64,000 nt of DNA, from sequence record JX128257; one strand, given 5' to 3'. The notes under the pieces were generated by a model. It was not told the origin of the DNA, searched no databases, and was given only the letters and a program-made list of their open reading frames with translations. Both the position numbers and the translations under genes were made by a program. The stretch comes from Escherichia phage ECML-4. Below, piece after piece: positions 6,871 through 63,105 of the stretch. How positions within the stretch are numbered: the stretch's first letter is position 1; each line of letters starts with the position of its first letter.

Positions 6871-7274
6871 TATTCACCTCTCAGAAGACGAGCGAAGCGT
6901 TCAACAATGCGATTGCGCGGCTTCTCGGGAACGATGTCTTCTACCGTAATGGTCAGTGTGTAGTTTGTAGAAAAATCGCAATCGGACTTTGTGATGATTT
7001 TCCGTTCACCAGGCAGCGGATACATCGTTAAAGCCCTATCGACGGAATCTAGAGAAGAACCGACCAAGTCCACCACCCTTTGGTGCCCGAACGATAATGG
7101 ACCTACGACATCCTTTTCAAAAATTTCAATCACGTCGGTGACTAACACACCCAATGCAAGTCTTAGTCCAAGGTTCTGATTTTTATCCCCTAGTGTGTAC
7201 ACAAACTGCCGACGCCACAACTCTTTCCGGTCTTCAGAACGGACGAGAGAATAATTCAAATGGTATTGTTTCAT
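6870..7274 (-). CDS. hypothetical protein
   Basis: 134 aa ORF, 1-nt overlap with downstream gene. Confidence 0.4.
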   Translation of the reverse strand: MKQYHLNYSLVRSEDRKELWRRQFVYTLGDKNQNLGLRLALGVLVTDVIEIFEKDVVGPLSFGHQRVVDLVGSSLDSVDRALTMYPLPGERKIITKSDCDFSTNYTLTITVEDIVPEKPRNRIVERFARLLRGE

Positions 7275-7603: not shown

Positions 7604-7650
7604 TAAATTAAGGGGAAGTATACCTTCCCCTTCTTCAATAAAATAAATTA

Positions 7651-26945: not shown

Positions 26946-26953
26946 AAAAAAGA

Positions 26954-26994
26954 GGATAGAGCAATAATACCCTATCCCCCTTTATTGAAGAACG
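26954..26994 (-). terminator. terminator hairpin within a repeated intergenic element
   Basis: GGATAG...CTATCC hairpin plus shared 14-mer TTTATTGAAGAACG (plus-strand reading), also present at 29792-29805. Confidence 0.45.
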
Positions 26995-26995
26995 A

Positions 26996-27421
26996 TTAGT
27001 CTTTGGATTCTACTTTATCACCACGCAGATCCTGGACGGGTTTGCCATCCGGCGACATGATGTAGATGGTGTTAATTGTTTCAAACCAAGACAGTTCATC
27101 AACTCCTTCAGTGTATGGAGTTACCGGAACTGAAGTTTTGATATGATCACCAACGTTATTTGGGGCACCATCAGACTTCAGCACTGGCTCCAGGAAGGCG
27201 AAACGACCATTTGGATAAATCACCCCGCCTTTGAACATGCGAATCTTCTTGCGAGGGTTGTTAGCCTCACCAAGACACACCACCAGATGATGAATCATCT
27301 CAGGGCGGGTGAGCAACGTGTCGTCACGGATGATCCCCTGTTTGATAGCAGAGATCACCACTTCATCCAACAAAGCCTGTTGCTGTTCCAGAGTCAAAGA
27401 TTCAGTAAGTTTCACGCTCAT
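26996..27421 (-). CDS. hypothetical protein
   Basis: 141 aa ORF. Confidence 0.4.
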   Translation of the reverse strand: MSVKLTESLTLEQQQALLDEVVISAIKQGIIRDDTLLTRPEMIHHLVVCLGEANNPRKKIRMFKGGVIYPNGRFAFLEPVLKSDGAPNNVGDHIKTSVPVTPYTEGVDELSWFETINTIYIMSPDGKPVQDLRGDKVESKD

Positions 27422-27424
27422 GGT

Positions 27425-27994
27425 CTAACCTTTGAAATTAATTGGGTTCTGAACCCCAGAGTCAAACGCGGCCTGGGTACGGGTATCGCTCACCACCTGA
27501 CAGGTCTTTTCGAGATCGATGCGAGGGTATCCAAAGATGCCAGCAATGACAGATCCAGGGAACTGGCCGAGTTTGGTTTCATAGATAGCACACGCATCTA
27601 ATTTCTTTGTCTGGCTGATACGGAATTCATCACGTCCTGAACTGATGACCACCTGAATTTCTTTGTACAGGCTTGAATCAAACTGGATGTTCTGTTCCTG
27701 GATCCATTGCATAACCGCCTTTGAACCATCAGCACCATAACGACCCTGGAAAGTATCTTTGATCACTTCTTTCAGACCGTCTTTGTACAGGCCAGGTATC
27801 TGAGCCGTCTCTTGTACTTTGTTTGTATAGTTGCTCAGATGGTTTTCAGAATCTTTATTGAACTTTTTGACTTGCTGTTCAATACGATTGAAATCATTGA
27901 AATAACTGACGAAACTACCAACACCGATTACAACAAAAGCCAGAATCGCCAAACCGATGATCCAACCAATTGAAATACCTTTACGCTGCGACAT
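27425..27994 (-). CDS. LemA family membrane protein
   Basis: N-terminal TM helix; C-terminal YETKLGQFPGSVIAGIFGY matches the LemA Y-N-x-FPGS-x2-A-x2-FGF signature. Confidence 0.6.
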   Translation of the reverse strand: MSQRKGISIGWIIGLAILAFVVIGVGSFVSYFNDFNRIEQQVKKFNKDSENHLSNYTNKVQETAQIPGLYKDGLKEVIKDTFQGRYGADGSKAVMQWIQEQNIQFDSSLYKEIQVVISSGRDEFRISQTKKLDACAIYETKLGQFPGSVIAGIFGYPRIDLEKTCQVVSDTRTQAAFDSGVQNPINFKG

Positions 27995-28009
27995 CTTTAC
28001 TTCCTCTTG

Positions 28010-29119
28010 TTAAAACAAACGTTTGTAAGTGCGACCATTGTACTGCATATGGCCTAATATGAAAATTGCGGTAAACGGAACACAACCTAATAAAACGACG
28101 ATAATCACTTCCCATGTCTTGAGGTCACGCCATTTCAGATACTCCATTTCCTTCATTTCAACACGGTTATAGCCTTTGCTGATATTGACTGCAACTTCTT
28201 GGAATACTGATATCCCCATGGGTTTGCCAGTCAATGAAAGACCGTTTCGGGAATGAAGTTCCATGTTATTCATCCCATCAGCAAATGACGTGGATTTACC
28301 CCAATTGATTTTCATATCCTTCGATATGTCAGTAACCACAATGACATCGTTCTTTTTACCACCAGACCATGCATATAGCAGCCCCTGAAAATATTCCACA
28401 GGCTGGCCAGAAGTCACTACCCACACGATATTGACCTGACGTGATGCCCCCAATGTTTTCAAAGTGTTGTTCAGATAATCATTCCAATAATCAACGGGAA
28501 TATCCATCCCTGACATATTCAGAACACGAGTCACCCGATAATAATCATACACCCTTGGATATGACGGGATATGGTCTTTGAACTTCTCAGCGAATTGTTG
28601 GTCAGATTTGGAGAATAAAGAATCCTTGTTCCCTAGAACATAGTTCATATATGCATGTTCACGCGCTGCAGGTTCTCCGATTTTAACTTGCGCCCAACGC
28701 GGGGGCTCTGTAGTACCCTGACGATCAATACGGTCAATGCTCAGATCACCGACGGATGTTAATACGTCCCAATCAACGTCATAAGAGTGCTCATAGCACG
28801 TGCTGCAATGACGCGTTTGTGTACAAGATCGGTTATTTCCTGAACCAGAGCAAGAAGTTGTGTAATAGCACATACATTCATAAGAATGGCTACAACCCAC
28901 CTTATTTCGTTGCTTGTCAGTAACGTATCCATTCAAAATTTCAACATCTCCCGAACTACCCAGGGAAAATGCAGCGTATGCTCCCGCCTGGATAAGACAG
29001 GATAATACAACCACTATCGCAGTAGCAATTAGCGTTTCTTTTGGTTCATGGGTTTTGCGATGGTAAACCACGAACAATATGGCTAAAATAATAGGGACCA
29101 CAAACAGAAGGTAAATCAT
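28010..29119 (-). CDS. membrane protein (two N-terminal TM helices, Cys-rich ectodomain, C-terminal TM)
   Basis: 369 aa; hydrophobic helices at both termini; Cys cluster (CSHSYECMCYYTTSCSG...CTQTRHCSTC). Confidence 0.45.
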   Translation of the reverse strand: MIYLLFVVPIILAILFVVYHRKTHEPKETLIATAIVVVLSCLIQAGAYAAFSLGSSGDVEILNGYVTDKQRNKVGCSHSYECMCYYTTSCSGSGNNRSCTQTRHCSTCYEHSYDVDWDVLTSVGDLSIDRIDRQGTTEPPRWAQVKIGEPAAREHAYMNYVLGNKDSLFSKSDQQFAEKFKDHIPSYPRVYDYYRVTRVLNMSGMDIPVDYWNDYLNNTLKTLGASRQVNIVWVVTSGQPVEYFQGLLYAWSGGKKNDVIVVTDISKDMKINWGKSTSFADGMNNMELHSRNGLSLTGKPMGISVFQEVAVNISKGYNRVEMKEMEYLKWRDLKTWEVIIVVLLGCVPFTAIFILGHMQYNGRTYKRLF

Positions 29120-29738: not shown

Positions 29739-29819
29739 GATGTATTTCCTTGTAAAAGAAAGGGGAACGGGCTAATAATAACCCATTCCCCTTTATTGAA
29801 GAACGCAATCGCAGTCAGA

Positions 29820-31596: not shown

Positions 31597-31800
31597 TTAA
31601 TTCCTTTTGAAACTTTCAATTATGTTGTAAACGAACGGCGTTAATAAAGCAACACCGCCCGAATAATATAACGCGTAAACATTCAATATTTCGGTTGAGT
31701 CTAATTCAACGATGCCCAAATATTTCATAACACCGACAAGCATAGCTGAAAAGCACATCACCAGACCGACGAACACAAAATATTTAGACATCTTTTTCAT
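31597..31800 (-). CDS. small membrane protein
   Basis: 67 aa, two hydrophobic helices. Confidence 0.35.
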   Translation of the reverse strand: MKKMSKYFVFVGLVMCFSAMLVGVMKYLGIVELDSTEILNVYALYYSGGVALLTPFVYNIIESFKRN

Positions 31801-34170: not shown

Positions 34171-34212
34171 AGGGATAACAGGGGGAATTATATCCCCCTT
34201 TGTTTTATTGAA

Positions 34213-38114: not shown

Positions 38115-38131
38115 AATATTTATTGAATAAA

Positions 38132-38160
38132 GTTTACTTCTTCAATAACTGGCGTATACT
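38132..38160 (+). promoter_or_regulatory. candidate sigma70-type early promoter
   Basis: GTTTAC (38132-38137), 17-bp spacer, TATACT (38155-38160); about 50 nt upstream of ATG 38210. Confidence 0.3.
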
Positions 38161-38209
38161 TCTAATTGTAGTACGAACAAACAACAATCTGAAGAGAAGG
38201 AAATACATC

Positions 38210-38767
38210 ATGGCAATCGAAATTATCGCTCAATCAAAATCAGGCAAGACTGTAATGTACGGCACTGAAGAAGGCCGCTGTATCATCAACTACGGCACTA
38301 TCACTGGCGAGTCTCCAGAGAAAGGTGGTCGCTATCTGGTTGAGTACGGTTCACGCCTGCTAATGGTAAGCAAAGTCGATGGTCGTGAAATCATGATTCC
38401 TCGTAAAGAATACTTTGACTCACGCTCTGCCGCGATGACTTTCTTCCTCTTCCAGAAACGCCACGAACTCTTCGTTGAAGCGAAAGACGCAGGTCTGGAC
38501 GACGCGACGGCTGAGCTGATTGCCGAAGGTAAAATGACTCTCGAAGCTGCTCTCGGAGACATGGATTGCGAAGCCGAAGCACATTATATTGAATATTCCG
38601 CATATCAGAACGAATGTGAAGATGATCCGGAAGACGACGGATTCGACCCTGACCTCCACGGCGGCGAAGACGATAACACCCCTTCCTTAGAAGTTCTGAT
38701 GGCTGGCGGCCAGGCCGCTTGGGAATGGCAGAACGAGAAGAACGCCTGGCTGGATTCCCGTATCTAA
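38210..38767 (+). CDS. hypothetical protein with acidic C-terminus
   Basis: start at ATG 38210 preceded by AAGGAAATACATC; C-terminal ECEDDPEDDGFDPDLHGGEDD. Confidence 0.45.
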   Translation: MAIEIIAQSKSGKTVMYGTEEGRCIINYGTITGESPEKGGRYLVEYGSRLLMVSKVDGREIMIPRKEYFDSRSAAMTFFLFQKRHELFVEAKDAGLDDATAELIAEGKMTLEAALGDMDCEAEAHYIEYSAYQNECEDDPEDDGFDPDLHGGEDDNTPSLEVLMAGGQAAWEWQNEKNAWLDSRI

Positions 38768-40004: not shown

Positions 40005-40039
40005 GTTCGTTTCCTCTATGGATAAACCTTATGGGATAT

Positions 40040-40489
40040 TTAGGCTTCTCTCTTCGCCAGCCCTGGTTTGAATACCACCATTTCTTCTACGTTATTGGCA
40101 CTCATAGAGGCTATGGAATCGAATCCTTTATTGATAAGTTCCTTCACATTATCGTGAATCTTACCAGGTTCTATCCCCAACTCACGCATTTTGTTTTCCC
40201 AAACAGAAACGTTATTAGAATCTATTACCAGAGTCTTCTTGGCCTTAACACGAAATGCCATGACAACAGGTTCACCAGATTGACGATAGCGAACGGCGTT
40301 TTCCGCGTAGATCTGCGCTTTTTCTGGATCCCCTGTCAGGTAAAATCCAGCACCCATCGTACCAGAGTCAGTCTGGCCAAATTTTTCAAAATCAAAGACG
40401 TCGAATTCAACATTCGACCCATGATATAAAACAATATCCGTAAAATCGGGCAATGTTGATTCACGATAGAATTCTAGGAAGGTTTTCAT
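40040..40489 (-). CDS. ADP-ribosyltransferase-fold protein (PARP-like H-Y-E class candidate)
   Basis: LYHGSN (H-G-S), GAGFYLTGD (G-x-G-x-Y-F/L), IYAEN, later NNVEEMVVF resembling the PARP catalytic-Glu strand; 149 aa. Confidence 0.4.
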   Translation of the reverse strand: MKTFLEFYRESTLPDFTDIVLYHGSNVEFDVFDFEKFGQTDSGTMGAGFYLTGDPEKAQIYAENAVRYRQSGEPVVMAFRVKAKKTLVIDSNNVSVWENKMRELGIEPGKIHDNVKELINKGFDSIASMSANNVEEMVVFKPGLAKREA

Positions 40490-40528
40490 GGATACCCCAC
40501 ACTTGCTGTATGGGGTATTTAGGAGGGA

Positions 40529-43378: not shown

Positions 43379-43599
43379 ATATTAAACCATCGTGGGGATG
43401 GAAAGACTACTCACAGCAATTTCTGATAATGGGCGTTGGGAGAGTGCGTCGGGAATCGAACCCGAAACCGTCAGGACAATGAAAAGCTATTGCATTTCAC
43501 TTTGCATATCCTCCGGCTTTCTTAACTTCCTTAACCCCAGATTGTTATGAAGTCGGCATGCACACCTTCTTCATCTTCAGGAAGTCACACTCATTGTTC

Positions 43600-43675
43600 T
43601 GGTTGCTTCAACTGGATTCGAACCAGTGACCTCTCCCTTATCAGGGGAACGCTCTACCTACTGAGCTATGAAGCA
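43600..43675 (-). tRNA. tRNA-Ile (anticodon GAT)
   Basis: hand-folded cloverleaf: acceptor TGCTTCA/TGAAGCA, D stem GCTC/GAGC, anticodon stem TTCCC/GGGAG with loop CTGATAA, T arm ACTGG-TTCGAAT-CCAGT, CCA encoded. Confidence 0.8.
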
Positions 43676-43678
43676 ATT

Positions 43679-43767
43679 TGGCGGAAGGTGAAGGATTCGA
43701 ACCTTCGGGGGCTAAAAGCCCCACTCGATTAGCAGTCGAGTCCCTTAAACCTCTCGGGCAACCTTCC
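43679..43767 (-). tRNA. tRNA-Ser (anticodon GCT), type II
   Basis: acceptor GGAAGGT/ACCTTCC, anticodon stem CTCGA/TCGAG with loop CTGCTAA, long variable arm, T arm GAAGG-TTCGAAT-CCTTC, CCA encoded. Confidence 0.8.
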
Positions 43768-44052
43768 GTATACTGCGCCTCGGTCAAGAATTTTCCAAGC
43801 CATGACCTAAATCTGGGTTCTTGACCTGACCGAGCGTAATTTGGACGGGCTTCACACCCGATTGTGCATTTGATCTGCCGTAGCCCAACTCCCCGCGCCG
43901 AAGCGCCGATTGGTTAACTGGCACCAGTGCCTTCTGGTTCGATCTCCTGTAACTTTACAGGCTTTGCGCCCGACCATTTCTGGAAGTTGAGGCATCGTTC
44001 CCGATGTGGAGTCCCCTCATTTTACACAGCTGGCTGCAACGCTTACTGTGTT

Positions 44053-44136
44053 TGGTGTGAGTGGATGGATTCGAACCACCGCGCTGTTACGGGGAGATTT
44101 ACAGTCTCCTGCATTCGACCGCTCTGCCACACTCAC
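44053..44136 (-). tRNA. tRNA-Tyr (anticodon GTA), type II
   Basis: acceptor GTGAGTG/CACTCAC, anticodon stem GGAGA/TCTCC with loop CTGTAAA, 12-nt variable region, T arm GGTGG-TTCGAAT-CCATC, CCA encoded. Confidence 0.75.
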
Positions 44137-44392
44137 ATTTGGTCTACCACCACGTGCTGGGCCACGCTCGAGGACATCGGCCATCCTTCCTCAGCTAATC
44201 CACGCGGCGGTAGATTTAGATCAGAGTGTACGGTGTAGCATTCCGCAGGGGTGCACCTACTGTAGCCCTTTCACTCTGAAATTGTATGAAGTAGGTCTCA
44301 CTCCCCTGGGTATCTGTATCCTGCAGCCTTACATTGGCAGCTATCGCGCGATTCGCACTTCCGAAGGCGCTTCGAGATACTCTACTTCAATT

Positions 44393-44468
44393 TGGCGACG
44401 ATGGCAGGACTTGAACCTGCGACATATGGATTAACAGTCCACCGTTCTACCGACTGAACTACATCGTC
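44393..44468 (-). tRNA. tRNA-Asn (anticodon GTT)
   Basis: acceptor GACGATG/CATCGTC, D stem GTTC/GAAC, anticodon stem GTGGA/TCCAT with loop CTGTTAA, T arm GCAGG-TTCAAGT-CCTGC, CCA encoded. Confidence 0.8.
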
Positions 44469-44469
44469 A

Positions 44470-44670
44470 TTATCCGTGCTTGTTTGCTTCAATTGCCCTT
44501 AATTGAGCATCAGCGTCAGCTTTGGTGTCATGTGTCCCAAGAACCTTCGTCTTGGTGTGGTCAAGGACAACCCACTTGTCGCCTCGCTTTTCAACAAACT
44601 CAACAATCTCTTTGTTGTCGGTAGCGAGGCCATCCCACTCAGCAAGAAACTCACCGAACGTTTTCATCAT
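44470..44670 (-). CDS. small hypothetical protein embedded in tRNA cluster (66 aa)
   Basis: track ORF begins with TTG; more likely start is the ATG-ATG pair at 44670 preceded by GGTGAG. Confidence 0.35.
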   Translation of the reverse strand: MMKTFGEFLAEWDGLATDNKEIVEFVEKRGDKWVVLDHTKTKVLGTHDTKADADAQLRAIEANKHG

Positions 44671-44787
44671 ACTCACCAATTGTTTATTGAACAACTGGTT
44701 TATTTAGGTGCTCCCGAGGCGGTATTTTAATCCCGCGATCCCATCTCGCCTGCCGTAGACCAGAGCATGCTGACAGTCCAACATATT

Positions 44788-44863
44788 TGGTGACCCTGGC
44801 TGGACTTGAACCAGCGACCAATCGATTATGAGTCGACTGCTCTAACCACTGAGCTACGGGGCC
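44788..44863 (-). tRNA. tRNA-Met (anticodon CAT)
   Basis: acceptor GGCCCCG/CAGGGTC (one C-A mismatch), D stem GCTC/GAGC, anticodon stem GTCGA/TCGAT with loop CTCATAA, T arm GCTGG-TTCAAGT-CCAGC, CCA encoded. Confidence 0.7.
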
Positions 44864-44971
44864 AAAATTGGCGGGGTCTGAGGCTTTTCACCTCACCTGC
44901 TGGATTGGCCTCCAGCTGTTCTCTCTGGGGACTCGCTGTCCGGACAGCTATCCCTTAAACTATCGCCCCTT

Positions 44972-45086
44972 AATTCATATTGCTGTGGGTAATACCAAAG
45001 CGGAGGTTTGGAATCTCTCGCCCTATAGCGACCTTTAAACCGTTTGATCAGTCCGATCCAAAGGACTACCCACAGCAATATGAATT
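44972..45086. repeat. 20-bp perfect inverted repeat flanking a 75-nt loop
   Basis: AATTCATATTGCTGTGGGTA (44972-44991) and its exact reverse complement (45067-45086); a 14-bp palindrome GCTGTCCGGACAGC lies just upstream (44935-44948). Confidence 0.8.
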
Positions 45087-45293
45087 TGTTGTGTCCAATC
45101 AAGGACTGTCAACCTTTTATCCCGTTTGTGCATGATCAGTTCATGCAGGCCTCTTTGTGCGCCTCACGGCAACGCGCTTCTGTAGGTCATTGACTTGCAC
45201 CGTAGTCTCACCACAGGCGTTTATTTTTCCAGGGCTTTCCACTTACAAGTCTTAACCAGATCGGGATACGGGCTTGTAAGATCAGATTGGACA

Positions 45294-45371
45294 CAACTTT
45301 GATGGCTCTAGGACTAAAGATCCCGCGTCACCCATAGACTTGGTTTATAAAATCTAGAGCCATCAAAGTTG
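45294..45371. repeat. 18-bp perfect inverted repeat flanking a 42-nt loop
   Basis: CAACTTTGATGGCTCTAG (45294-45311) and CTAGAGCCATCAAAGTTG (45354-45371); an 8-bp hairpin CTTACAAG/CTTGTAAG lies upstream (45242-45280). Confidence 0.8.
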
Positions 45372-45750
45372 CAACCAATGTCGCAACTCGCACTTCAGCG
45401 TCTTCGTCTCGCTTCAGCACTTGTCCTCTACGCTCGGACCAAACGAGGCTGGCCGACAGAAACATGACACCACTCATCACTAGAGCGAGGATGTGGTTGA
45501 TAGCCACGATGCTATATCTCTGTCGCAGAGTGATCACACTTGTCAGGATGATCACTGTTTTGCGAACTTGAAAATACTGCGCCTGTCTCGGGTTTCCCCT
45601 TAGTTCGGCCTCTCATTGTTCGTCTAGTCAGGGAGCTACCCTTGATGACCAGCTTATTTTGAGATCTTCGCCAGCACCCACTAGTGTCTAGAATATGTAG
45701 GTGTCGAGGTCTGCAAGGCATTGCCCTATTTCATACAACGCTCTCTCAAG

Positions 45751-45888
45751 TACGCAAATCGAAGTTCTCTGGGCTTAACAGGTTCGACCCAACATGTTGT
45801 ATATCGCCTAACTTGCTCATGGGACGGACACATCTGTGTACAGACCTTGAGGGTTAAAAGATATACCCAGAGAACTTCGATTTGCGTA
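45751..45888. repeat. 23-bp perfect inverted repeat flanking a 92-nt loop
   Basis: TACGCAAATCGAAGTTCTCTGGG (45751-45773) and CCCAGAGAACTTCGATTTGCGTA (45866-45888); loop contains a T-loop-like GGTTCGACC. Confidence 0.8.
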
Positions 45889-46477
45889 GCCCTTCACTTG
45901 CCAAAGATCAGGGCTAATAACAAGACTTCGCTCACATCTTTGAGGGCACTCAGTGTACAACAGGCTCCGATATTTCATAGGGCATTACTGCCTCGGATTT
46001 AAGTTGCCTTTCTCCTGAAACTCCATGCAGTCTCGCGTCTGACGCGGAATGCCCTCAAAGATGTGGAGCCGTTTTAGGGAGTCGAACCCAAATGCTTGGC
46101 CAGCGCTGACCTTACATCCCATCTGACTTAGGCAACCCACCTCTGCTTACTCAGGAGCTTATCCCCTTTGGACAGTCAGATATAACGGCTTTGGGATTGG
46201 AGGAAGGACTCGAACCTTCTCATGTACGCTCCTGATTTCTCAGAAGTAGCCTGCTCCCATCGACCTATTAAGTACACGCTCCGCTCATTGTTCGGCGGGA
46301 GCTTATTAATCACACCCTCCCGCCTATTGTTAGTGCGCCGAATTTTGTTATGAGGAATCGGAAGACCTCACTGGTGTATGGCTATTAAGCTACTGCCAGG
46401 AACGTGTTATCATTAGCGATTATTTTTGTGGTCAGTTTCTAAAAACCCGCAAAGTCACGCACAACGAAAACGAAAAC

Positions 46478-46542
46478 CTGTTTGAGTCCTAAACCTACCT
46501 GTCTTGGTCTCACATCGCTATGAGTGGCCAGGACTCAAACAG
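46478..46542. repeat. 13-bp perfect inverted repeat flanking a 39-nt loop
   Basis: CTGTTTGAGTCCT (46478-46490) and AGGACTCAAACAG (46530-46542). Confidence 0.7.
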
Positions 46543-46617
46543 CTTGCCGTTCAGTGAGTTAACTATACTTTGTAACCCGTTATTGATAAAACCTTTTATT
46601 TTTGTTGACGAGGGTGT

Positions 46618-46718
46618 GGAATCGAACCACACTTCTGAGCGCTGCCCCGTGTCACCAATGCACCACCTCACCATCGATTTGCCGGAACTTACGCATCCGG
46701 CCTCGTCCTGTCGGTGTT
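46618..46718 (-). ncRNA. tRNA-like element (perfect 7-bp acceptor stem plus canonical T-arm, non-canonical 101-nt body)
   Basis: GACGAGG (46618-46624) pairs perfectly with CCTCGTC (46712-46718); T-arm-like GTGTGG-AATCGAA-CCACAC at 46625-46643; no standard anticodon arm could be folded. Confidence 0.3.
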
Positions 46719-47332
46719 CTTCTGAATCCGGGAAGATCAGCAGGAACTATGAATCAAGTTAATTCAACCAACAGGAATCCTCGTGTTGCCCTTTGACGCA
46801 ACATTATGAACCCTCTATGAAGACTCATAATGTTGTCGGCGTGATGGAGATTAGCGCCCCCGACCTCCCCTTATATGTTGGTGTCGACTTGCCAACAGGG
46901 TGCTCTCTGATTCTGAGCTAATCACGCTACAACAGGGAGTTTCGTTCTCCGACGGTCAAGTGCGTCCACTGACACCAGCGAGGTGGATATTATGCCTCTA
47001 TTCACACAAGCCCCAGAGACTAGGGGTTCACTGTTTTCGGTTTCAAGCCTACTCACACTGTGCTGTTTCCCTCATGTTTGATACTTTACTGCAAGCCAGC
47101 CAATTTGAAAAATCCTCTCCCCTTTGAATTACACTGCCCACAGCAGTGCGGACGAACCTTCATTCAAAACCGGATGCGCCGAAATGGGCGACTGTGTACC
47201 GGACTGATCAGGTCGACCCAGGAGAGAGCAGGTAATCCCGATCAGGAGGATGAGGAGTAACATCATGTAAAACATAGTGTTCCCTCCCTTCCATGCAACT
47301 AACTTTACCGCATTTATTTATTGAATAAAGCG

Positions 47333-47902
47333 TTATTTTATCAATTCTAACTTCACAACGCGGCGCAGAAGGTAAACATATTCGCCAGCAGCTTCATGCG
47401 TCATATAATGGGTAGAAGGTGTGGAATGATTGTTCTGGGTTTCTTTTAATCCAACACGTTCTGCCCAACCATTAATCGAATTCCCATAGAATCCGATGAT
47501 CGCGCCGAAATAAATGCGCTGGCTCTCTGGTTCTAAAATATAGTTGACAGTGAAGCAGATGTCAGAACGAATAGATTCCAACTTTATACCGACCCGACCT
47601 TCAGAGAATTCGTTGCGAACATACAAATGACGAAAACGATCGCGTCGCGCTTGTGATGACTCTTCCAATTCTTGGCGAAGTGAGGATGTTGCATCGATAT
47701 TAAATGAAAATGTCGGGTTTTGCAAATCGGTACGGGCTAACTCTAATGCTGATTCAACAACACGGCGGAAATTGATACTTTTACCTGTCAGACGTTTCAC
47801 TTCATCTGTGATTGTTCCAAAAGGGATTTTCGTGGCGCGTTCTCCTTCGTATTTCGCCAATAAAGGAATAATGTGTTTCATGATTGCTGTGTTAATGTGC
47901 AT
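47333..47902 (-). CDS. hypothetical protein
   Basis: 189 aa ORF; first minus-strand gene next to the divergent switch region. Confidence 0.45.
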   Translation of the reverse strand: MHINTAIMKHIIPLLAKYEGERATKIPFGTITDEVKRLTGKSINFRRVVESALELARTDLQNPTFSFNIDATSSLRQELEESSQARRDRFRHLYVRNEFSEGRVGIKLESIRSDICFTVNYILEPESQRIYFGAIIGFYGNSINGWAERVGLKETQNNHSTPSTHYMTHEAAGEYVYLLRRVVKLELIK

Positions 47903-48265
47903 TTCCTGAGCCTCGTCAAATTAATTAAATGTCCCCACTATTATATTGGGAATATGTTTATTGAATATAACCCCAAGAAAGGCCAATAAAATAATGACAG
48001 CGATTATTAATAGGTAAAAACTACTTTTCTACAACATCAAGAAACTGTATCTTAACGCGGTGCCCTTCGAGTTGTGAGTGTTAACGAACAACGAGAAGCA
48101 GCCTCCATGGCTGCGGAATGGGACTGCCTGTCAAGGCGGTGTTACGAGCGAGGGCGTCAGCCCCCTCGCGAGTATATTCGAATAAATTAACGCGCGAGAG
48201 CGTTTTGATTCCCTTTGGCTAAATATCTTCAACACCATATTCAAACTCAGGTGATGGAGATTATC

Positions 48266-52078: not shown

Positions 52079-52082
52079 AACT

Positions 52083-52120
52083 AAATACCCCTAGATGACA
52101 TGAATACATTTAGGGGTATT
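52083..52120 (+). promoter_or_regulatory. conserved ATACCCC/GGGGTAT hairpin immediately upstream of a tailspike start codon
   Basis: AATACCCCTA (52083-52092) pairs with TAGGGGTATT (52111-52120), 4 nt before ATG 52125. Confidence 0.5.
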
Positions 52121-55298: not shown

Positions 55299-55310
55299 TA
55301 TTGAATGCCT

Positions 55311-55345
55311 AAATACCCCATATTGGTCATCCTTTATGGGGTATT
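55311..55345 (+). promoter_or_regulatory. conserved ATACCCC/GGGGTAT hairpin upstream of a tailspike start codon
   Basis: AATACCCCATA pairs with TATGGGGTATT, ending 4 nt before ATG 55349; near-identical copy at 57847-57881. Confidence 0.5.
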
Positions 55346-55348
55346 ATC

Positions 55349-57232
55349 ATGATTTCTCAATTCAATCAACCACGCGGCTCCACTTCCATAGAAGTTAACA
55401 AACAATCTATCGCTCGAAATTTCGGTGTCAAAGAAGACGAAGTCATTTATTTCACTGCTGGTATTGATCTCAGTGGATTTAAAGTAATTTATGATGAGTC
55501 TACCCAACGGGCTTATTCTCTCCCTTTCGGTATTGTTTCAGGGACAACTGCAATTAGTCTGGATGAAAGAGCTATCCTCACTCATTCCGCTGGCTCTGTT
55601 GACCTTGGGGAATTAGCAGTAAGCCGCGAAGAATATGTGACTTTACCTGGTTCTTTTAATTTCGGCCATACCATTAATGTGAAAAATGAACTTCTTGTTC
55701 ACGATGATAAAAAATATCGATGGGATGGCACATTACCTAAAGTTGTTCCTGTTGGATCAACTCCTACAACAACTGGGGGAATTGGGGTTGGTGCATGGTT
55801 GAGTGTTGGTGATGCATCGCTACGTGGTGAATTATTTTCAGAATACATCTTATACAAAACACCTCAGGCATTTGGTGCTATTGGTGATGGAGTTGCTGAT
55901 GACACTTTATCACTGCAAGATGCAATGGATTACTGTCAGGTTCACAACGAGAAACTTGTTATCCCATCAGGACGCTATCGAATCACCAAGCCACTGCTAT
56001 ATCGCAACCAGGGTTTTTATAACTATGAGATTGAAGGGCAGGGAGGTGCTGCTGTAATCATCATGGATTCTCTGGAAAAAACTGGAATTACTGCTCCTGA
56101 TGCCTTTGGCGATGATTTTAACGTTAACGCAGCGATGGTAGTTCTGAATGACACTAACCAGAGTAAGTATTGCCGCATTAGTGGATTGCGTTTCGAATCA
56201 CCAGTTGGTGCTGAATATGCTATTTATGTTGGTCAGGCAGAAAATACGTATATCCATGACTGCTTCTGGACTGGTTTCACCTTTGGGTGGTATGACCTTG
56301 GATCATGGGTTACACGCGTAGAACGCTGTATTGCCAGGGATATTGTAGATACTGGGTTCTTTAAGAAAAATGGCACCAGTACCTACATAGCTGAGTGTTA
56401 TGCAGACAGGATGATGCGAGGGTATTACCTCGGGGGTGGGTATTCGGCTATCATAAATTGTGCTTGCGATTTAACCACTCGCTGGGGGTTCTATCTATAT
56501 GGTGGTAGGACTGGTTCTGATTTAGCAACATTCTCTATTAAAGGTTGTGGTTCAGAGCAGTCTGGAACTGATTCTGTATTTTATGTTGACGGGCTAGTTG
56601 CGCTGTCTATAGAGGACCACAACGCAGGTAATGACCCAACTGTTCAACCAGCACCTGCTGCGTTGCTTAGCATGGCTTCGAATACATCATATTCACAAGT
56701 GGTGCTGAAAAATATTAGGACAGTAAATGTGGATACATTAATTTTGGATTCTGCTGACCATAATTATTTTGATTTAACAAATGTCACATGCCGCAGCGAG
56801 ATGTCGAAAGAATTTTATCTCGGTACGAATTCAAGAGTTTTAAAAAGGTCATATGATGGTGAAAGATTCATTACTAGCAACGACCAAGTTGGCATTGGCT
56901 TTGCGGAGTCTGATATTGTTGATGGATGGACAGATCTCACTTTGTCTGGACTAAGAAATGGACAATTTATAATTAGGAGGACTGTAAGCATACCCAGAAC
57001 TTCAGGGGATGCTGGGGCGGTAACTATCACGATGCCATTAAATATGGATACGAATTATACCGTAGCTGCCACTCTGGAGGGTGAATTTAGTCAACTGCAA
57101 TCCATTTGCCCTGTGTTCAGTGTTACAGATAAAACATCATCTAGTTTTTCTTTGTGTGCATCGTCTGCAAAGAATAATACAACATGGTCAGCTATAGATG
57201 TTGAGGTGATTATATATGGGCTGAAATCGTAA
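55349..57232 (+). CDS. tailspike protein (627 aa), pectate-lyase-like beta-helix
   Basis: N-terminal anchor shared with the 60707 gene (KVIYDESTQRAYSLP...HSAGSVDLGELA...LPGSF); FGAIGDGVADDTLSLQDA resembles the Pectate_lyase_3 signature. Confidence 0.8.
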   Translation: MISQFNQPRGSTSIEVNKQSIARNFGVKEDEVIYFTAGIDLSGFKVIYDESTQRAYSLPFGIVSGTTAISLDERAILTHSAGSVDLGELAVSREEYVTLPGSFNFGHTINVKNELLVHDDKKYRWDGTLPKVVPVGSTPTTTGGIGVGAWLSVGDASLRGELFSEYILYKTPQAFGAIGDGVADDTLSLQDAMDYCQVHNEKLVIPSGRYRITKPLLYRNQGFYNYEIEGQGGAAVIIMDSLEKTGITAPDAFGDDFNVNAAMVVLNDTNQSKYCRISGLRFESPVGAEYAIYVGQAENTYIHDCFWTGFTFGWYDLGSWVTRVERCIARDIVDTGFFKKNGTSTYIAECYADRMMRGYYLGGGYSAIINCACDLTTRWGFYLYGGRTGSDLATFSIKGCGSEQSGTDSVFYVDGLVALSIEDHNAGNDPTVQPAPAALLSMASNTSYSQVVLKNIRTVNVDTLILDSADHNYFDLTNVTCRSEMSKEFYLGTNSRVLKRSYDGERFITSNDQVGIGFAESDIVDGWTDLTLSGLRNGQFIIRRTVSIPRTSGDAGAVTITMPLNMDTNYTVAATLEGEFSQLQSICPVFSVTDKTSSSFSLCASSAKNNTTWSAIDVEVIIYGLKS

Positions 57233-57269
57233 TTATTGTATTAAATAAATAACTTATCTTTTATTAAAA

Positions 57270-57296
57270 AACCCCGCTTCGGTGGGGTTAGTTTTT
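57270..57296 (+). terminator. rho-independent terminator
   Basis: AACCCCGCTTCGGTGGGGTT hairpin followed by GTTTTT. Confidence 0.6.
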
Positions 57297-57846
57297 AGAA
57301 GTTGTTGATGGTAATCGGCGATGATTGCTCATTTTGTTTTGGGTAATTCTTCGATCTTCAGTCGTTAAACGCCATCATTGCTGCTTCCCATCCCAGCGCC
57401 ACACACACACACACTATGCATCCGGCATTTAAAGATGCGGAAAGGTAATCAATCTGGCCTTCCTCCCAATCGCTAATTGTGTGGTCTTTCCTCTTGCTTC
57501 TGGTGTTTCTTTGTCCGGCGCTGGGAATTATATGGTAATTTCGGGAAACACGTTGATGGCTAATAACCCATCTGCGCCTGAAAATATAACTTTGTATCAG
57601 GTCACAGGTGCGCAGAGTTGGGTGGCCCATTATGAAACTATCAGATGTGTTCGAAATGATTTCAAATCTGCGCTGTTGGCGATTAATGCAACAGGGACAG
57701 CACAATCTGGTTTGAGTACTACCAATAAATTCTGGTTCGGGGATAACGCGACGATCAATACCACGGTTGTTTGTACTTATCCTGCTGGCAACAAAGCCAA
57801 CACCGATATCACTCAGACAGTTTCAGTTTAAATTGAATTGAGCCTA

Positions 57847-57881
57847 AATACCCCATATTGGCAAATCCTTTATGGGGTATT
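57847..57881 (+). promoter_or_regulatory. conserved ATACCCC/GGGGTAT hairpin upstream of a tailspike start codon
   Basis: AATACCCCATA ... TATGGGGTATT, about 35/40 identical to the 55311 copy; track ORF starts at an ATG inside the 3' arm. Confidence 0.5.
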
Positions 57882-57886
57882 TTCAA

Positions 57887-60652
57887 ATGACCAGAAATGT
57901 AGAAGAATTATTCGGCGGCGTAGTCACAGCTCCCCACCAGATTCCTTTCACTTATAAATCAAGTGTCGGTGGAGAAACTTTCTTTTCTCTACCTTTCTAT
58001 CCTGTCACTGGTGTTGTCACAATCAACGGTGGTATGCAAGTTCCGTTAGAGAACTTCGAGATAGACGGGAATACGTTGAATCTCGGGCGCGCATTGTCCA
58101 AAGGCGATGTTGTGTATTGCTTATTCGATAAAATTCTTTCACCAGAAGACACTGCCAAAGGCATCCGCATATACAAATTTCAAGCCGTGGGTGGAGAAAC
58201 CGAATTCACGCCTGACTTTACTTCTTATGGTGTACAGTCTCTTTATATCGGTGGCGAATACAAAACTCCTGATATAGAATATTCATACAACAGTACGACT
58301 GGGAAAGTGTCTTTGCAAACTGCATTGACTGCAGGCGTTTGGGTAGTCGCTGAAATCTCTGTTAAACAACCGAATATCAGTCCGGCGTTTGACCGCAGTA
58401 TTCAAGAAATTGCCCGTTCTGCTAATGTGAAAGACTCTGAAGTCATCGTTAGTACGGACACCATATCTTTGTTGGATGGGAAGAAAGTTGTTTATGACAT
58501 AGCGGCACAAACCAGTTATGGTTTACCAACCATTCCTGATGGTTCTGTCATTTCTACGATCTCAGACGGGAAATTGAATTACAACCCAGGTGATGTGCAG
58601 GTTGATTTGTTGCCTTTAGAAGATTCATTTATTAATGTGATAAACACTCTGGGGCGCAATGATGGTGCCAAGTATATCGGAGAATGCCATTCTGTTGCTG
58701 ATCTCAGGAATACTGAACCCACTATGGATGGACAACGCATTATTCTTAAGCAACACACTGCGGGTACTCTTCTTGGTGGAGGGGTATTCCGTGCGTTAAT
58801 TGATGGTACAGGAAAGACTGATGATAACGGTACTGTGATCAAAACTGTTGGCGGCGCAGCCTGGTTACGTGTTAATGCTGATAGAGTTAACCCATTCATG
58901 TTTGGTGCTTTGGGTGGTTCTAATGATGATACTATTCCAGTACAATCTTGTGTGGACAGTGGTAAGGCCACACAATTAACTGGTATACATTACGTTAGCA
59001 ATATCCAGTTAAAATATAATACGTCGTCTATTTATGGGTCTGGATTACATTACTCCAGGTTGCATCAGTTGCCTTCTGCTACTGGGAATTGTATTACCAT
59101 AAAAGATACATGCTCCCTTATTGTATTAGACTCCTTTGGGGTATATGGCACAGGTGCACAACAAGGCACATCATTTACTGCGGGTACAACAGGTATCTAT
59201 ATAGAAACTCCTTCAGGTCTCTCAGCCGATTATCCGTTCCACACTACCGCAGACCCAAGACGCGACTTGTGTATTTCTAAGGTCCATATAGCAGGTTTTG
59301 ATGAATATGGGTTAAATATTGATAGTGGTAACTTTAGTGTTACTACAGATTCTCTTTTAGTCAACCACATCAATCAGGTGGGCGTCCGTTGTGCTACTAC
59401 TGATTGGACTTGGACAAATATCCAGGTTAATACCTGCGGTAAACAATGTCTGGTTCTTGATGGTTGTGGTAATGGTCGTATTATTGGTGGTAAATTCATT
59501 TGGGCTAACTGGCAACCTTATGGTACAGTAGGACAGTTCCCAGGCATTACTATTAATAATAGCCAGAATATGGTTATTAATGGTATTGAGGTACAAGATT
59601 GTGGCGGGAATGGCATTGAGATTAGCGATTCATATTCAATTTCCATGAACGGATTGAACACCAATCGTAACGGCATCAACGCTAACAACACTTTCTACAA
59701 CATCGTATTTAACAAAAGTGATGCAGTTATCAACGGATTCGTAGGACTCAATTATGCCGCGAATAGTGGTTCAGGTGCTAACTCTAGTGCGGGCAATTTT
59801 CAGTTCCTGTCTAATGATTGCAGCGTCACCATTAATGGTGTGGTTGAGACTGGTTATATGGGCATTAACTTTATTGGTGATAACAATATTATCAACCCCA
59901 CAAATTCCGACCTGAGCATTAACGGATTGGTTAATTATTCCAAGACTGGTTTGCAAACCATGAACGAGACCCCTACATTTGATGGTGTTAGCACTACACC
60001 TGTTTATGTAAGTGTCCCATCTTCTGTAGGGCAAGTAAATGGTCTGAGACTATCACAAGCCAACAAAGATAAATTACTGTACTCAAGAACAGCAGGTCCA
60101 GAAGGTATTACCATGGCTGCTGTTGTAGTACCTACCATATCTGGAGCTGAAGTATTTAACTTCATGGCCATTGGTTCAGGGTTTAGTGATACATCCAACA
60201 GTCTTCATCTTCAATTAGTTATAGACGCTTCCGGAAAACAAACAATTGCTTTGCTATTGGGGGGCGATGGTACAACCCAAATTTTATCTGGGGATTTACC
60301 TAACGACCTTAAACTACAAAGTGGTGTGCCATATCATATAGCTATTGGTGCTAAACCTGGATATTTCTGGTGGAGTATTCTTAATATTCAGACGGGTAAG
60401 AGAATCAGACGGTCATTCCGAGGCGCTTATTTAGCTGTACCATTTAATTCTATATTCGGATTAACTTCTTCATTAACATTCTTCTCGGATAGCAATGCTG
60501 GTGGGGATGCCTGTTCTGGTGTAGGTGCTAAAGTGTATGTTGGTATGTTCTCTTCTGAGAATGATTATGTAGCTTCACGGTACTACAACCTGATTAATCC
60601 TGTAGACCCTAATAAGTTAATTAGTTACCGTATATTGGATTCTTCTATTTAA
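57887..60652 (+). CDS. tailspike protein (about 921 aa) with beta-helix region
   Basis: start set to ATG 57887 by analogy with the other tailspikes; module FDRSIQEIARSANVKDSEVIVS...VVYDIAAQTSYGLP homologous to the 52125 gene; Gly/Asn-rich repeats. Confidence 0.75.
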   Translation: MTRNVEELFGGVVTAPHQIPFTYKSSVGGETFFSLPFYPVTGVVTINGGMQVPLENFEIDGNTLNLGRALSKGDVVYCLFDKILSPEDTAKGIRIYKFQAVGGETEFTPDFTSYGVQSLYIGGEYKTPDIEYSYNSTTGKVSLQTALTAGVWVVAEISVKQPNISPAFDRSIQEIARSANVKDSEVIVSTDTISLLDGKKVVYDIAAQTSYGLPTIPDGSVISTISDGKLNYNPGDVQVDLLPLEDSFINVINTLGRNDGAKYIGECHSVADLRNTEPTMDGQRIILKQHTAGTLLGGGVFRALIDGTGKTDDNGTVIKTVGGAAWLRVNADRVNPFMFGALGGSNDDTIPVQSCVDSGKATQLTGIHYVSNIQLKYNTSSIYGSGLHYSRLHQLPSATGNCITIKDTCSLIVLDSFGVYGTGAQQGTSFTAGTTGIYIETPSGLSADYPFHTTADPRRDLCISKVHIAGFDEYGLNIDSGNFSVTTDSLLVNHINQVGVRCATTDWTWTNIQVNTCGKQCLVLDGCGNGRIIGGKFIWANWQPYGTVGQFPGITINNSQNMVINGIEVQDCGGNGIEISDSYSISMNGLNTNRNGINANNTFYNIVFNKSDAVINGFVGLNYAANSGSGANSSAGNFQFLSNDCSVTINGVVETGYMGINFIGDNNIINPTNSDLSINGLVNYSKTGLQTMNETPTFDGVSTTPVYVSVPSSVGQVNGLRLSQANKDKLLYSRTAGPEGITMAAVVVPTISGAEVFNFMAIGSGFSDTSNSLHLQLVIDASGKQTIALLLGGDGTTQILSGDLPNDLKLQSGVPYHIAIGAKPGYFWWSILNIQTGKRIRRSFRGAYLAVPFNSIFGLTSSLTFFSDSNAGGDACSGVGAKVYVGMFSSENDYVASRYYNLINPVDPNKLISYRILDSSI

Positions 60653-60653
60653 A

Positions 60654-60677
60654 AATATACCCCTCTTCGGAGGGTAT
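60654..60677 (+). promoter_or_regulatory. ATACCC hairpin with TTCG tetraloop upstream of fourth tailspike
   Basis: ATACCCTC-TTCG-GAGGGTAT followed by T-run; AGGAGA SD then ATG 60707. Confidence 0.5.
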
Positions 60678-60706
60678 TTACTAGAGAAAAACAGGAGATT
60701 CTTATT

Positions 60707-62941: not shown

Positions 62942-62948
62942 AATACAA

Positions 62949-62974
62949 GCCCCCAATAAGGGGGCTTTCTTTTG
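62949..62974 (+). terminator. rho-independent terminator
   Basis: AGCCCCCAATAAGGGGGCT hairpin followed by TTCTTTT. Confidence 0.6.
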
Positions 62975-63105
62975 CTATGTCTCGTTAACCTGACAGGAAC
63001 TGGAAGTTCAAAACTATCAGGTGGAGGAACTGGGTTTTTATTTCTATCTGTTTGTTGGCTGTATACTAAATATCTCTATAAAATGGCACTAGATGGAGCA
63101 TCAAA

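Follow-up and report, generated by a model that had tools for sequence, protein, structure and literature searches.

The stretch of DNA analyzed here comprises 64,000 nt of Escherichia phage ECML-4 (sequence record JX128257), referred to below as the window, and its subject is a short AT-rich motif at gene boundaries that was assessed as a candidate promoter element. The window was compared with the whole annotated genome of Salmonella phage Maynard (Kuttervirus, Ackermannviridae). The window is a ViI-like Kuttervirus genome with 99% identity to Maynard (99.2% in the 36-40 kb region), and hundreds of related records for this region were found among Salmonella, Klebsiella, Escherichia, Dickeya, Shigella, and Serratia phages. 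The comparisons also included Klebsiella phage May, which belongs to a genus other than that of Maynard (Taipeivirus), Serratia phage 3M, which has phiMAM1 (Miltonvirus) among its close relatives at about 91% identity, and 50 kb of the Dickeya phage LIMEstone1. This last phage belongs to the subfamily Aglimvirinae and has about 59% genome identity to ViI (PMC3296691).

The initial annotation had reported three copies of the motif, and all three were recovered. The 14-mer TTTATTGAATAAAG is found exactly on the plus strand at 38119-38132 (site 1) and at 47317-47330 (site 2), and a variant, TTTATTGAATATAA, is located at 47957-47970 (site 3). The stretch shared by the two exact copies is a 16-mer, TATTTATTGAATAAAG (38117-38132 and 47315-47330). 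The palindromic 14-mer is a local form of a 9-bp box, TTCAATAAA, which reads TTTATTGAA on the other strand. The features at the three sites, including the open reading frames (ORFs) downstream of them, are as follows.

38119-38132, plus strand: site 1, TTTATTGAATAAAG, an AT-rich block that adjoins the -35 hexamer on its 5' side (about -48 to -35) and contains the inverted box TTTATTGAA
38132-38137, plus strand: -35 hexamer GTTTAC of site 1, alternatively TTTACT at 38133-38138
38141-38148, plus strand: second box copy, TTCAATAA, in the spacer of TTTACT-TCTTCAATAA-CTGGCG-TATACT
38155-38160, plus strand: -10 hexamer TATACT of site 1, with a 17-bp spacer from GTTTAC
38210-38767, plus strand: gene downstream of site 1, 185 aa, phrog_4823, function unknown
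47317-47330, minus strand: site 2, read on this strand as CTTTATTCAATAAA, with a -35-like TTTATT (47329-47324) overlapping the box TTCAATAAA (47325-47317)
47302-47307, minus strand: -10-like TAAAGT of site 2, forming TTTATT-N16-TAAAGT, with the full minus-strand reading CGCTTTATTCAATAAATAAATGCGGTAAAGT
47129-47275, minus strand: small ORF 3' of site 2, 48 aa, membrane-type, unannotated in Maynard, with a match to phrog_8415 (E = 1e-31)
47957-47970, minus strand: site 3, read on this strand as TTATATTCAATAAA, with the box TTCAATAAA at 47965-47957
47940-47945, minus strand: perfect -10 hexamer TATAAT of site 3, 11 bp after the box
47333-47902, minus strand: gene downstream of site 3, 189 aa, phrog_3788, whose stop codon is followed by site 2

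Site 1 is located in a 95-bp gap between two plus-strand genes and has the layout TTTATTGAATAAAG / TTTACT / TCTTCAATAACTGGCG / TATACT. The sigma-70-like GTTTAC/TATACT pair was found immediately downstream of the motif, as had been described earlier, and a generic sigma-70 scan also returned TTTACT-N16-TATACT. A putative transcription start predicted from this layout would fall near 38167, 43 nt ahead of the ATG at 38210. In Kuttervirus relatives and Serratia phage 3M, we found that TTTATTGAA, TTTACT, TCTTCAATAA, and the -10 hexamer were kept while the flanks had diverged. The right arm of the 14-mer is changed from TAAAG to AAAAC in five relatives, which carry TTTATTGAAAAAC instead of TTTATTGAATAAAG; the left arm is conserved, also in Serratia phage 3M. 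One relative possesses a plain hairpin in place of the site 1 cassette. The Maynard promoters at 59515 and 93637 share the site 1 spacer in identical form, as does LIMEstone1.

The end of site 2 and the stop codon of the minus-strand ORF 47333-47902 are 2 nt apart, which matches the earlier placement of the motif right after this gene. A putative transcription start of site 2 would fall near 47295. Its symmetry arises because the TTTATT of the -35 abuts the AATAAA of the box. The site 2 block CGCTTTATTCAATAAATAA was identical in 11 of 11 relatives, including Klebsiella phage May, with five spacer bases varying. At the -10, GTAAAGTTAGTTGC was conserved in the relatives. A block, GTAAAGTTAGT, was identical in all of them, again including Klebsiella phage May. 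The 48-aa ORF that follows is hydrophobic, begins MFYMMLLLILLIG, and has a strong ribosome-binding site; it is conserved, and present but diverged in Klebsiella phage May, and the small ORF downstream of site 2 was noted to vary among relatives.

Between the 48-aa ORF and a minus-strand tRNA cluster (43600-44863) lies a 2.2-kb ORF-poor stretch (44864-47128) with a GC content of 0.48. It contains two blocks, 45084-45887 and 45933-46628, with about 98% identity to Maynard, and the corresponding 2 kb is also unannotated there. A scan of 43.0-48.3 kb for Rfam families and tRNAs returned five known tRNAs only, none of them in the ORF-poor stretch. A promoter-like TTTATC-N17-TATAGT was noted within this stretch at 46562-46590 on the minus strand.

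Site 3, the variant that the initial annotation had assigned to a divergent region, was placed within the 363-bp divergent region 47903-48265, ahead of the baseplate genes. It has only a weak -35 hexamer (ATATTC/TATATT), and its putative start, predicted from the position of TATAAT, would lie near 47933, leaving about 31 nt to the ATG at 47902. In Klebsiella phage May, ATATTCAATAA and TATAAT are kept at equal spacing around a 12-nt spacer of unrelated sequence. A competing leftward promoter, TTTACC-N16-CATTAT at 47991-48018, was rejected; unlike the box-TATAAT pair, it is not conserved in Klebsiella phage May.

RNA folding gave no structure beyond shuffled controls at site 1 (z = -0.04), site 2 (z = 0.07), or site 3 (z = -0.57), in agreement with the earlier view that the dyad does not fold as RNA.

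Enrichment and orientation of the box

Exact duplication of the 14-mer is weak evidence when taken alone, since about 22 repeated 14-mers were encountered per dinucleotide-shuffled window. Because repeated 14-mers are this common by chance, the 9-mer core was analyzed instead, and sequence outside the window was used as an independent check. The 14-mer pattern with up to two mismatches gave 11 matches compared to 1.06 expected, and none of 100 shuffles reached 11. The 9-mer TTCAATAAA/TTTATTGAA was found 13 times in the window compared to 1.37 expected (Poisson p = 2.7e-9; 3.5e-4 after correction for all 9-mers). It is also the window's most intergenic-enriched 9-mer, with eight of the 13 copies in the 10.5% of the DNA that is non-coding and five inside genes. 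The excess was replicated in the 90.6 kb of the Maynard genome outside the window coverage, where 14 copies were found compared to 1.49 expected (p = 7.6e-10), and TTCAATAAA was encountered 7 times in the 50 kb of LIMEstone1.

Genome-wide intergenic enrichment, the check proposed in the initial annotation, was found in Maynard, in which 24 of the 40 copies of the 8-mer core fall in the 11.3% of the genome that is non-coding (p = 2e-13). By the deposited annotation, 16 of 23 Maynard copies of the 9-mer are intergenic. We found that 19 of the 24 intergenic 8-mer copies are co-oriented with the downstream gene (p = 0.007), and three of the five opposite-facing copies are inverted partners just upstream of a -35 hexamer, like site 1. 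The distance to the next gene is roughly 50-110 nt for most box copies. In most of the genomic copies, the 9-mer stands alone and a second arm is lacking.

One explanation for these counts is that an AT-rich word recurs by chance in a moderately AT-rich genome. The many repeated 14-mers in shuffled windows agree with this explanation, as do the five window copies inside genes, which codon usage could produce. However, the enrichment is about 10-fold and was replicated in independent sequence, the intergenic copies are biased in location and orientation, the spacing to the -10 hexamer is fixed (below), and conservation across genera exceeds the coding background. Chance recurrence is refuted by the replicated enrichment and the spacing statistics, and we give it practically no credence.

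String searches of the literature for the motif returned no description of the box. A scan of viral contigs with the 16-mer TTTACTTCTTCAATAA was uninformative, as the matches listed were mostly chance ones in unrelated contigs.

Promoter-like arrangements and terminator cassettes

Alignment of the box copies beyond the window yielded a common arrangement, in which TTCAATAAA or TTTATTGAA is followed by an optional GC hairpin, TTTACT, TCTTCAATAA, six bases (N6), and TATAAT or TATACT. A genome scan identified ten predicted intergenic promoters of the form TTTAC(T/A)-N16/17-TAnnnT, site 1 among them. All ten are co-oriented with the next gene, nine at 29-78 nt before its start and one at 287 nt. 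Seven of the ten carry the 9-mer, in one orientation or the other, at 3-15 nt ahead of the -35 hexamer, and five to six have it within the spacer. It was noted that the depositors of the LIMEstone1 record had annotated GTTTAC/TATACT as 'putative early promoter' and had also marked promoters overlapping terminators.

The leaders 3' of the TTTACT promoters at Maynard 59540-59591 and 93660-93712 share a block, CATAAGCAG(C/T)AC(A/G)ACAC...GAAATGAAGGAACTA, which is nearly identical between Maynard and LIMEstone1. The site 1 leader (window 38161-38209) carries a looser form, TTGTAGTACGAACAAAC. This shared block may be an element of the 5' untranslated region.

The TTTACT promoters resemble the early promoters of T4-type phages, sigma-70 promoters that have GTTTAC/TTTACW as -35, TAYWAT as -10, and an AT-rich upstream (UP) region. 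Those of T4 are of the 'UP/-35/TGn/-10' type (PMC2988021). Site 1 combines GTTTAC-N17-TATACT with an AT-rich upstream block, and the ten such promoters are all co-oriented. In contrast to T4, the upstream block here is a specific 9-mer with a central C/G that is used in either orientation and is repeated in the spacer, and no TGn extended -10 was seen in the phage promoters. The phages differ as well, being Ackermannviridae with hypermodified thymidine in one case and T4 with glucosylated hydroxymethylcytosine in the other.

In a second arrangement, the 8-mer ends 10-12 nt before a -10 hexamer and a good -35 is lacking. A -10-like hexamer was found 6 or 10-12 nt after the 8-mer in 12 of the 24 intergenic Maynard copies, compared to 2.2% expected (p = 2e-14). 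The window members of this second arrangement are site 3, on the minus strand, and the copies at 34.2, 29.8, and 26.9 kb; these three copies have a terminator hairpin with the -10-like hexamer inside its loop or beside it. The cassettes and two further box copies of the window are the following, with predicted folding free energies (dG) where available.

34180-34212, minus strand: cassette 3' of the DNA polymerase gene, with the box TTCAATAAA (34212-34204) and the hairpin GGGGGA-TATAAT-TCCCCC, which has TATAAT (34192-34187) in its loop
29759-29800, minus strand: cassette in which the box (29800-29792) immediately precedes a strong terminator hairpin (dG -28.9 kcal/mol, z -6.5)
26948-26989, minus strand: paralogous cassette with the box (26989-26981), a terminator hairpin (dG -26.7 kcal/mol, z -4.9), and TATTAT at 26969-26964
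7610-7642, minus strand: terminator-flanking copy with the inverted box TTTATTGAA (7642-7634), the hairpin GGGGAAG-gtatac-TTCCCC, and a T-rich tail
44683-44691, minus strand: intergenic box copy with an apparent -10 hexamer TATGAT (44671-44666)

For the 34.2-kb cassette, the generic scan gave TTGATT-N18-TATAAT (10 of 12). The 29.8-kb cassette has TATTAT (29780-29775) near the hairpin loop and a U-tract after the hairpin. In both the 26.9-kb and the 29.8-kb cassettes, a U-tract follows the hairpin and base pairing joins this U-tail to the AAA of the box. The copy at 44683-44691 is probably not a promoter for the next ORF; its apparent -10 hexamer was discounted because it overlaps the ribosome-binding site and ATG of that ORF.

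The second arrangement is reminiscent of T4 middle promoters, and a further explanation concerns the copies that lack a good -35 and have a -10 hexamer 11-12 bp after the box (site 3 and the 34.2, 29.8, and 26.9 kb copies). In these, the box would be a -30 element bound by a MotA-like activator. Such an activator would substitute for recognition of the -35 and would define a middle-type promoter class. T4 MotA boxes lie 12 +/- 1 bp from the -10 (PMC2988021), and here the 8-mer ends 12 nt from the -10 in five Maynard copies (p = 2e-7), equal to 11 bp after the 9-mer. In site 3 and four other copies, the 9-mer ends 11 bp ahead of the -10. A 9-bp box in place of a good -35, 11-12 bp from a strong -10, is a feature shared with the T4 middle promoters. 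The -35 hexamers of site 3 and of the 34.2, 29.8, and 26.9 kb copies are weak, and at site 3 and the Maynard_81/82 cassette the spacer has diverged between a conserved box and a conserved -10. However, ViI-like phages are reported to have no MotA or AsiA homologues (PMC3184105), and the sequence of the box, TTCAATAAA, differs from that of the MotA box, TTTGCTTTA. The same box is also encountered at a distance of 6 nt from the -10, as well as ahead of the -35, most copies have T-rich -35-like hexamers at 17 bp, and two copies form a paralogous pair, which reduces the number of independent cases. We regard a MotA-like activator as rather improbable.

Stem-loops were found in or next to the promoter at 26.9, 29.8, and 34.2 kb in the window and at 59.5, 78.7, and 93.6 kb in Maynard, whereas sites 1-3 are without them (z ~0). 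The cassettes cross-match one another over about 100 nt. Orthologous cassettes in LIMEstone1 showed 95% and 85% identity, compared to 71% and 75% for the adjacent upstream coding sequences. Two cassettes (Maynard 93608-93712 and 78703-78823) were observed to differ from LIMEstone1 by a flipped terminator hairpin apex, the loop being inverted and the stem kept (GGGGCGTTTGCCCC vs GGGGCAAACGCCCC; CCCCAACGTTTGTTGGGG vs CCCCAACAAACGTTGGGG).

The association with hairpins raises another explanation, in which the motif is the A-tract/T-tract flank of intrinsic, possibly bidirectional, terminators or an RNA-level signal of gene ends. Four window copies directly adjoin GC hairpins with U-tracts, and for two of these, at 26.9 and 29.8 kb, the pairing of box and U-tail was noted above. 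However, sites 1-3 have neither a hairpin nor other structure, many copies lie within promoter spacers, and a terminator flank leaves the conserved TTC/GAA part of the box unexplained. This explanation appears very unlikely.

The cassettes are closest in form to the promoter-early stem-loop (PeSL) elements of T4-type phages. In T4 and PST, PeSL promoters have the form TTTACW-N17-TAYWAT, with AT-rich DNA on the upstream side and a stem-loop immediately ahead of the promoter. RB49 and phi1 have the stem-loop placed over the -10 or in the interval from -35 to -10 (PMC4122927, PMC2839356). The cassettes described here share with the PeSL of RB49/phi1, PST/T4, and nt-1/KVP40 a repeated intergenic AT-rich region, a sigma-70-like promoter, and a terminator stem-loop, and the stem-loop layouts at 26.9, 29.8, and 34.2 kb of the window and at 59.5 and 93.6 kb of Maynard match. 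Sites 1-3 differ from PeSL in being without a stem-loop, and the box differs from any PeSL consensus in PMC2839356 or PMC4122927.

The repeated motif of PeSL is associated with indels, with gene shuffling among close relatives, and with the formation of mini-circles. A PeSL-style link of the cassettes to insertions and deletions was considered but was not established. Among the breakpoints between the window and Maynard, only 29744/29747 (one small gene) adjoins a cassette. The differences in gene content comprise extra genes in the window at 6.9-7.3 kb (6874-7273) and 27.4-28.8 kb (27421-28779), the one-gene indel at 29744-29747 next to the 29.8-kb cassette, a variable region of tRNA and homing-endonuclease genes (43415-45084), and the replacement of tail-spike genes (55816-63032).

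How the box may be read

The initial annotation had proposed either a dimeric protein-binding site or an AT-rich promoter element, and this proposal stood in part. The dimeric site, as argued from the dyad, was not borne out, as the right arm is lost in relatives at site 1 and most copies are single 9-mers. A palindromic operator as the selected feature was rejected in the same way, since the dyad is not conserved among orthologous or paralogous sites. The promoter element was upheld by the recurrent, co-oriented cassettes conserved across genera.

We consider it fairly probable that the box is a cis element both of promoters that the host sigma-70 RNA polymerase uses and of compact cassettes of promoter and terminator that resemble the T4-type PeSL. 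The broader claim that the sites are promoter elements is considerably more likely than this specific host-polymerase model. At site 1, the box at the position of an UP element would serve a T4-early-type promoter for the gene 38210-38767, with the second copy filling the spacer. At site 2, the minus-strand promoter TTTATT-N16-TAAAGT would use TTTATT as its -35, and its spacer would begin with the box. This promoter would restart transcription past the gene 47333-47902 into the ORF of the small membrane protein, and perhaps as far as the ORF-poor region and the tRNA genes. At site 3, the box in the -30 region, 11 bp upstream of TATAAT, would drive the gene 47902-47333. Judged from the sequence, RNA polymerase would initiate at sites 1-3, the box would act via the C-terminal domain of the alpha subunit (alpha-CTD) or the neighbourhood of sigma-70 region 4, and expression from the box promoters would be early.

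The UP element of E. coli, the alpha-CTD site at about -60 to -38, offers a partial parallel. The box lies at -48 to -35 at site 1 and in an upstream position in seven of the ten promoters, and it contains the A/T tracts AATAAA and TTTATT. The UP-element consensus is pure A/T, in contrast to the box with its conserved central C/G, which also occurs in the spacer.

Several observations weigh against the host-polymerase model. The conserved central C/G and the use of the box in both orientations are atypical of the pure A/T UP consensus. The box may be 6, 10-12, or 14 nt away from the -10, or may precede the -35, so that no single RNA-polymerase contact covers every copy. The promoters with 10-12 nt spacing have a poor -35 (TTCTTC, ATATTC) and no TGn, and they may need a factor. 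The copies at 26.9, 29.8, and 7.6 kb may be only terminator flanks. In addition, the phage DNA has hypermodified thymidines (PMC5889632), which may affect how this T-rich box is recognized. The reuse of the box in either orientation and at several distances could come from concerted evolution of PeSL-like cassettes.

It is also possible that the single 9-mer box is bound by some protein. In this explanation, the 9-mer would be the recognition site of a DNA-binding protein, either of the phage or of the host nucleoid, which bends or occludes promoters to switch them during infection. The candidates are the phage HU/IHF-family protein (the orthologue of Maynard_98) and a small winged-helix protein of 68 aa (the orthologue of Maynard_164), by analogy with the SPO1 protein TF1 acting on DNA that contains hydroxymethyluracil (hmU). 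TF1 prefers hmU DNA and inhibits SPO1 early transcription.

The properties of the box are operator-like in several respects, as it is a specific word with a central C/G that occurs in either orientation upstream of the -35 and at several positions relative to the -10. The phage HU/IHF-family protein is recognized by its sequence matches (PF00216, E = 6e-30; PDB IHF/HU, 1e-21; SPO1 TF1, 4e-11), and the phage also encodes a small winged helix-turn-helix protein. The HU-like gene, annotated as a 'transcription factor' at Maynard 82744-83022, has a box at 82664, about 80 nt upstream. A 16-mer, CGCTTTATTCAATAAA, is common to site 2 and to the region upstream of this gene, the preceding base being different (C at the HU copy). 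The DNA of ViI-type phages derives from hydroxymethyldeoxyuridine (hmdU), with hypermodification to 5-(2-aminoethoxy)methyldeoxyuridine (5-NeOmdU; PMC5889632, PMC3184105).

However, HU-family proteins are usually low in sequence specificity. By inspection of the copies, the IHF consensus WATCAANNNNTTR is matched by the box at TCAA only, with no TTR after it. The box is absent from three to four of the ten TTTACT promoters, and the dyad is not conserved. A protein recognition site of this kind is an unlikely, though not negligible, explanation. We assign a similarly low likelihood to the more specific proposal that TTCAATAAA is the box of a phage factor, with the HU/IHF-family protein as the obvious candidate, that programs the early-to-middle switch. 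If that proposal were true, binding in the spacer or upstream of TTTACT promoters would modulate them or shut them off, and promoters that lack a -35 would be switched on when the factor binds near -30, at 11 bp from the -10.

Further features and meaning for the Ackermannviridae

The window also has a second motif that is conserved and intergenic, CTAAATA(C/T)C(C/T)C, and ATA frequently comes after it. Most of its copies lie 20-39 nt upstream of a co-oriented gene start, with those on the plus strand ahead of tail-spike and baseplate genes.

48219-48227, 52081-52089, 55309-55317, 57844-57852, and 63066-63074, plus strand: intergenic copies of the second motif
40514-40522, 40035-40043, and 31779-31787, minus strand: intergenic copies of the second motif

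The second motif is probably a late promoter of the gp55 type, and its TAAATA core is annotated as 'putative late promoter' in LIMEstone1. The late consensus was left unidentified in the CBA120 paper (PMC3184105). A (CA)7 microsatellite was also observed at 57400-57413, in a 299-bp intergenic region between two genes of the tail-spike region.

Early promoters of the ViI-like phage CBA120 could not be found by informatics, with only eight sigma-70-like sites reported (PMC3184105), and a 2024 review of the Ackermannviridae never mentions promoters or transcription (PMC11721090). Our literature searches for promoter, transcriptome, or start-site studies of Ackermannviridae or Kuttervirus found none. 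The observed architecture, enrichment, orientation, spacing, and cross-genus conservation of the box offer a conserved promoter grammar, namely TTTACT-N16/17-TATNNT, in which the TTCAATAAA box is optional, and box-N11-TATAAT, often fused to terminators. This grammar also yields predicted start sites. It could be of use for the annotation of phages that are common in therapy and biocontrol, and for the design of expression cassettes and engineering sites.

The arrangement is an ordinary phage promoter architecture, but it supplies candidate early promoters for the Ackermannviridae, a family in which such promoters had not been described. As biology it is expected, since T4-like phages use strong host-type early promoters together with PeSL-like cassettes, and it would be surprising only if a phage factor reads the box.

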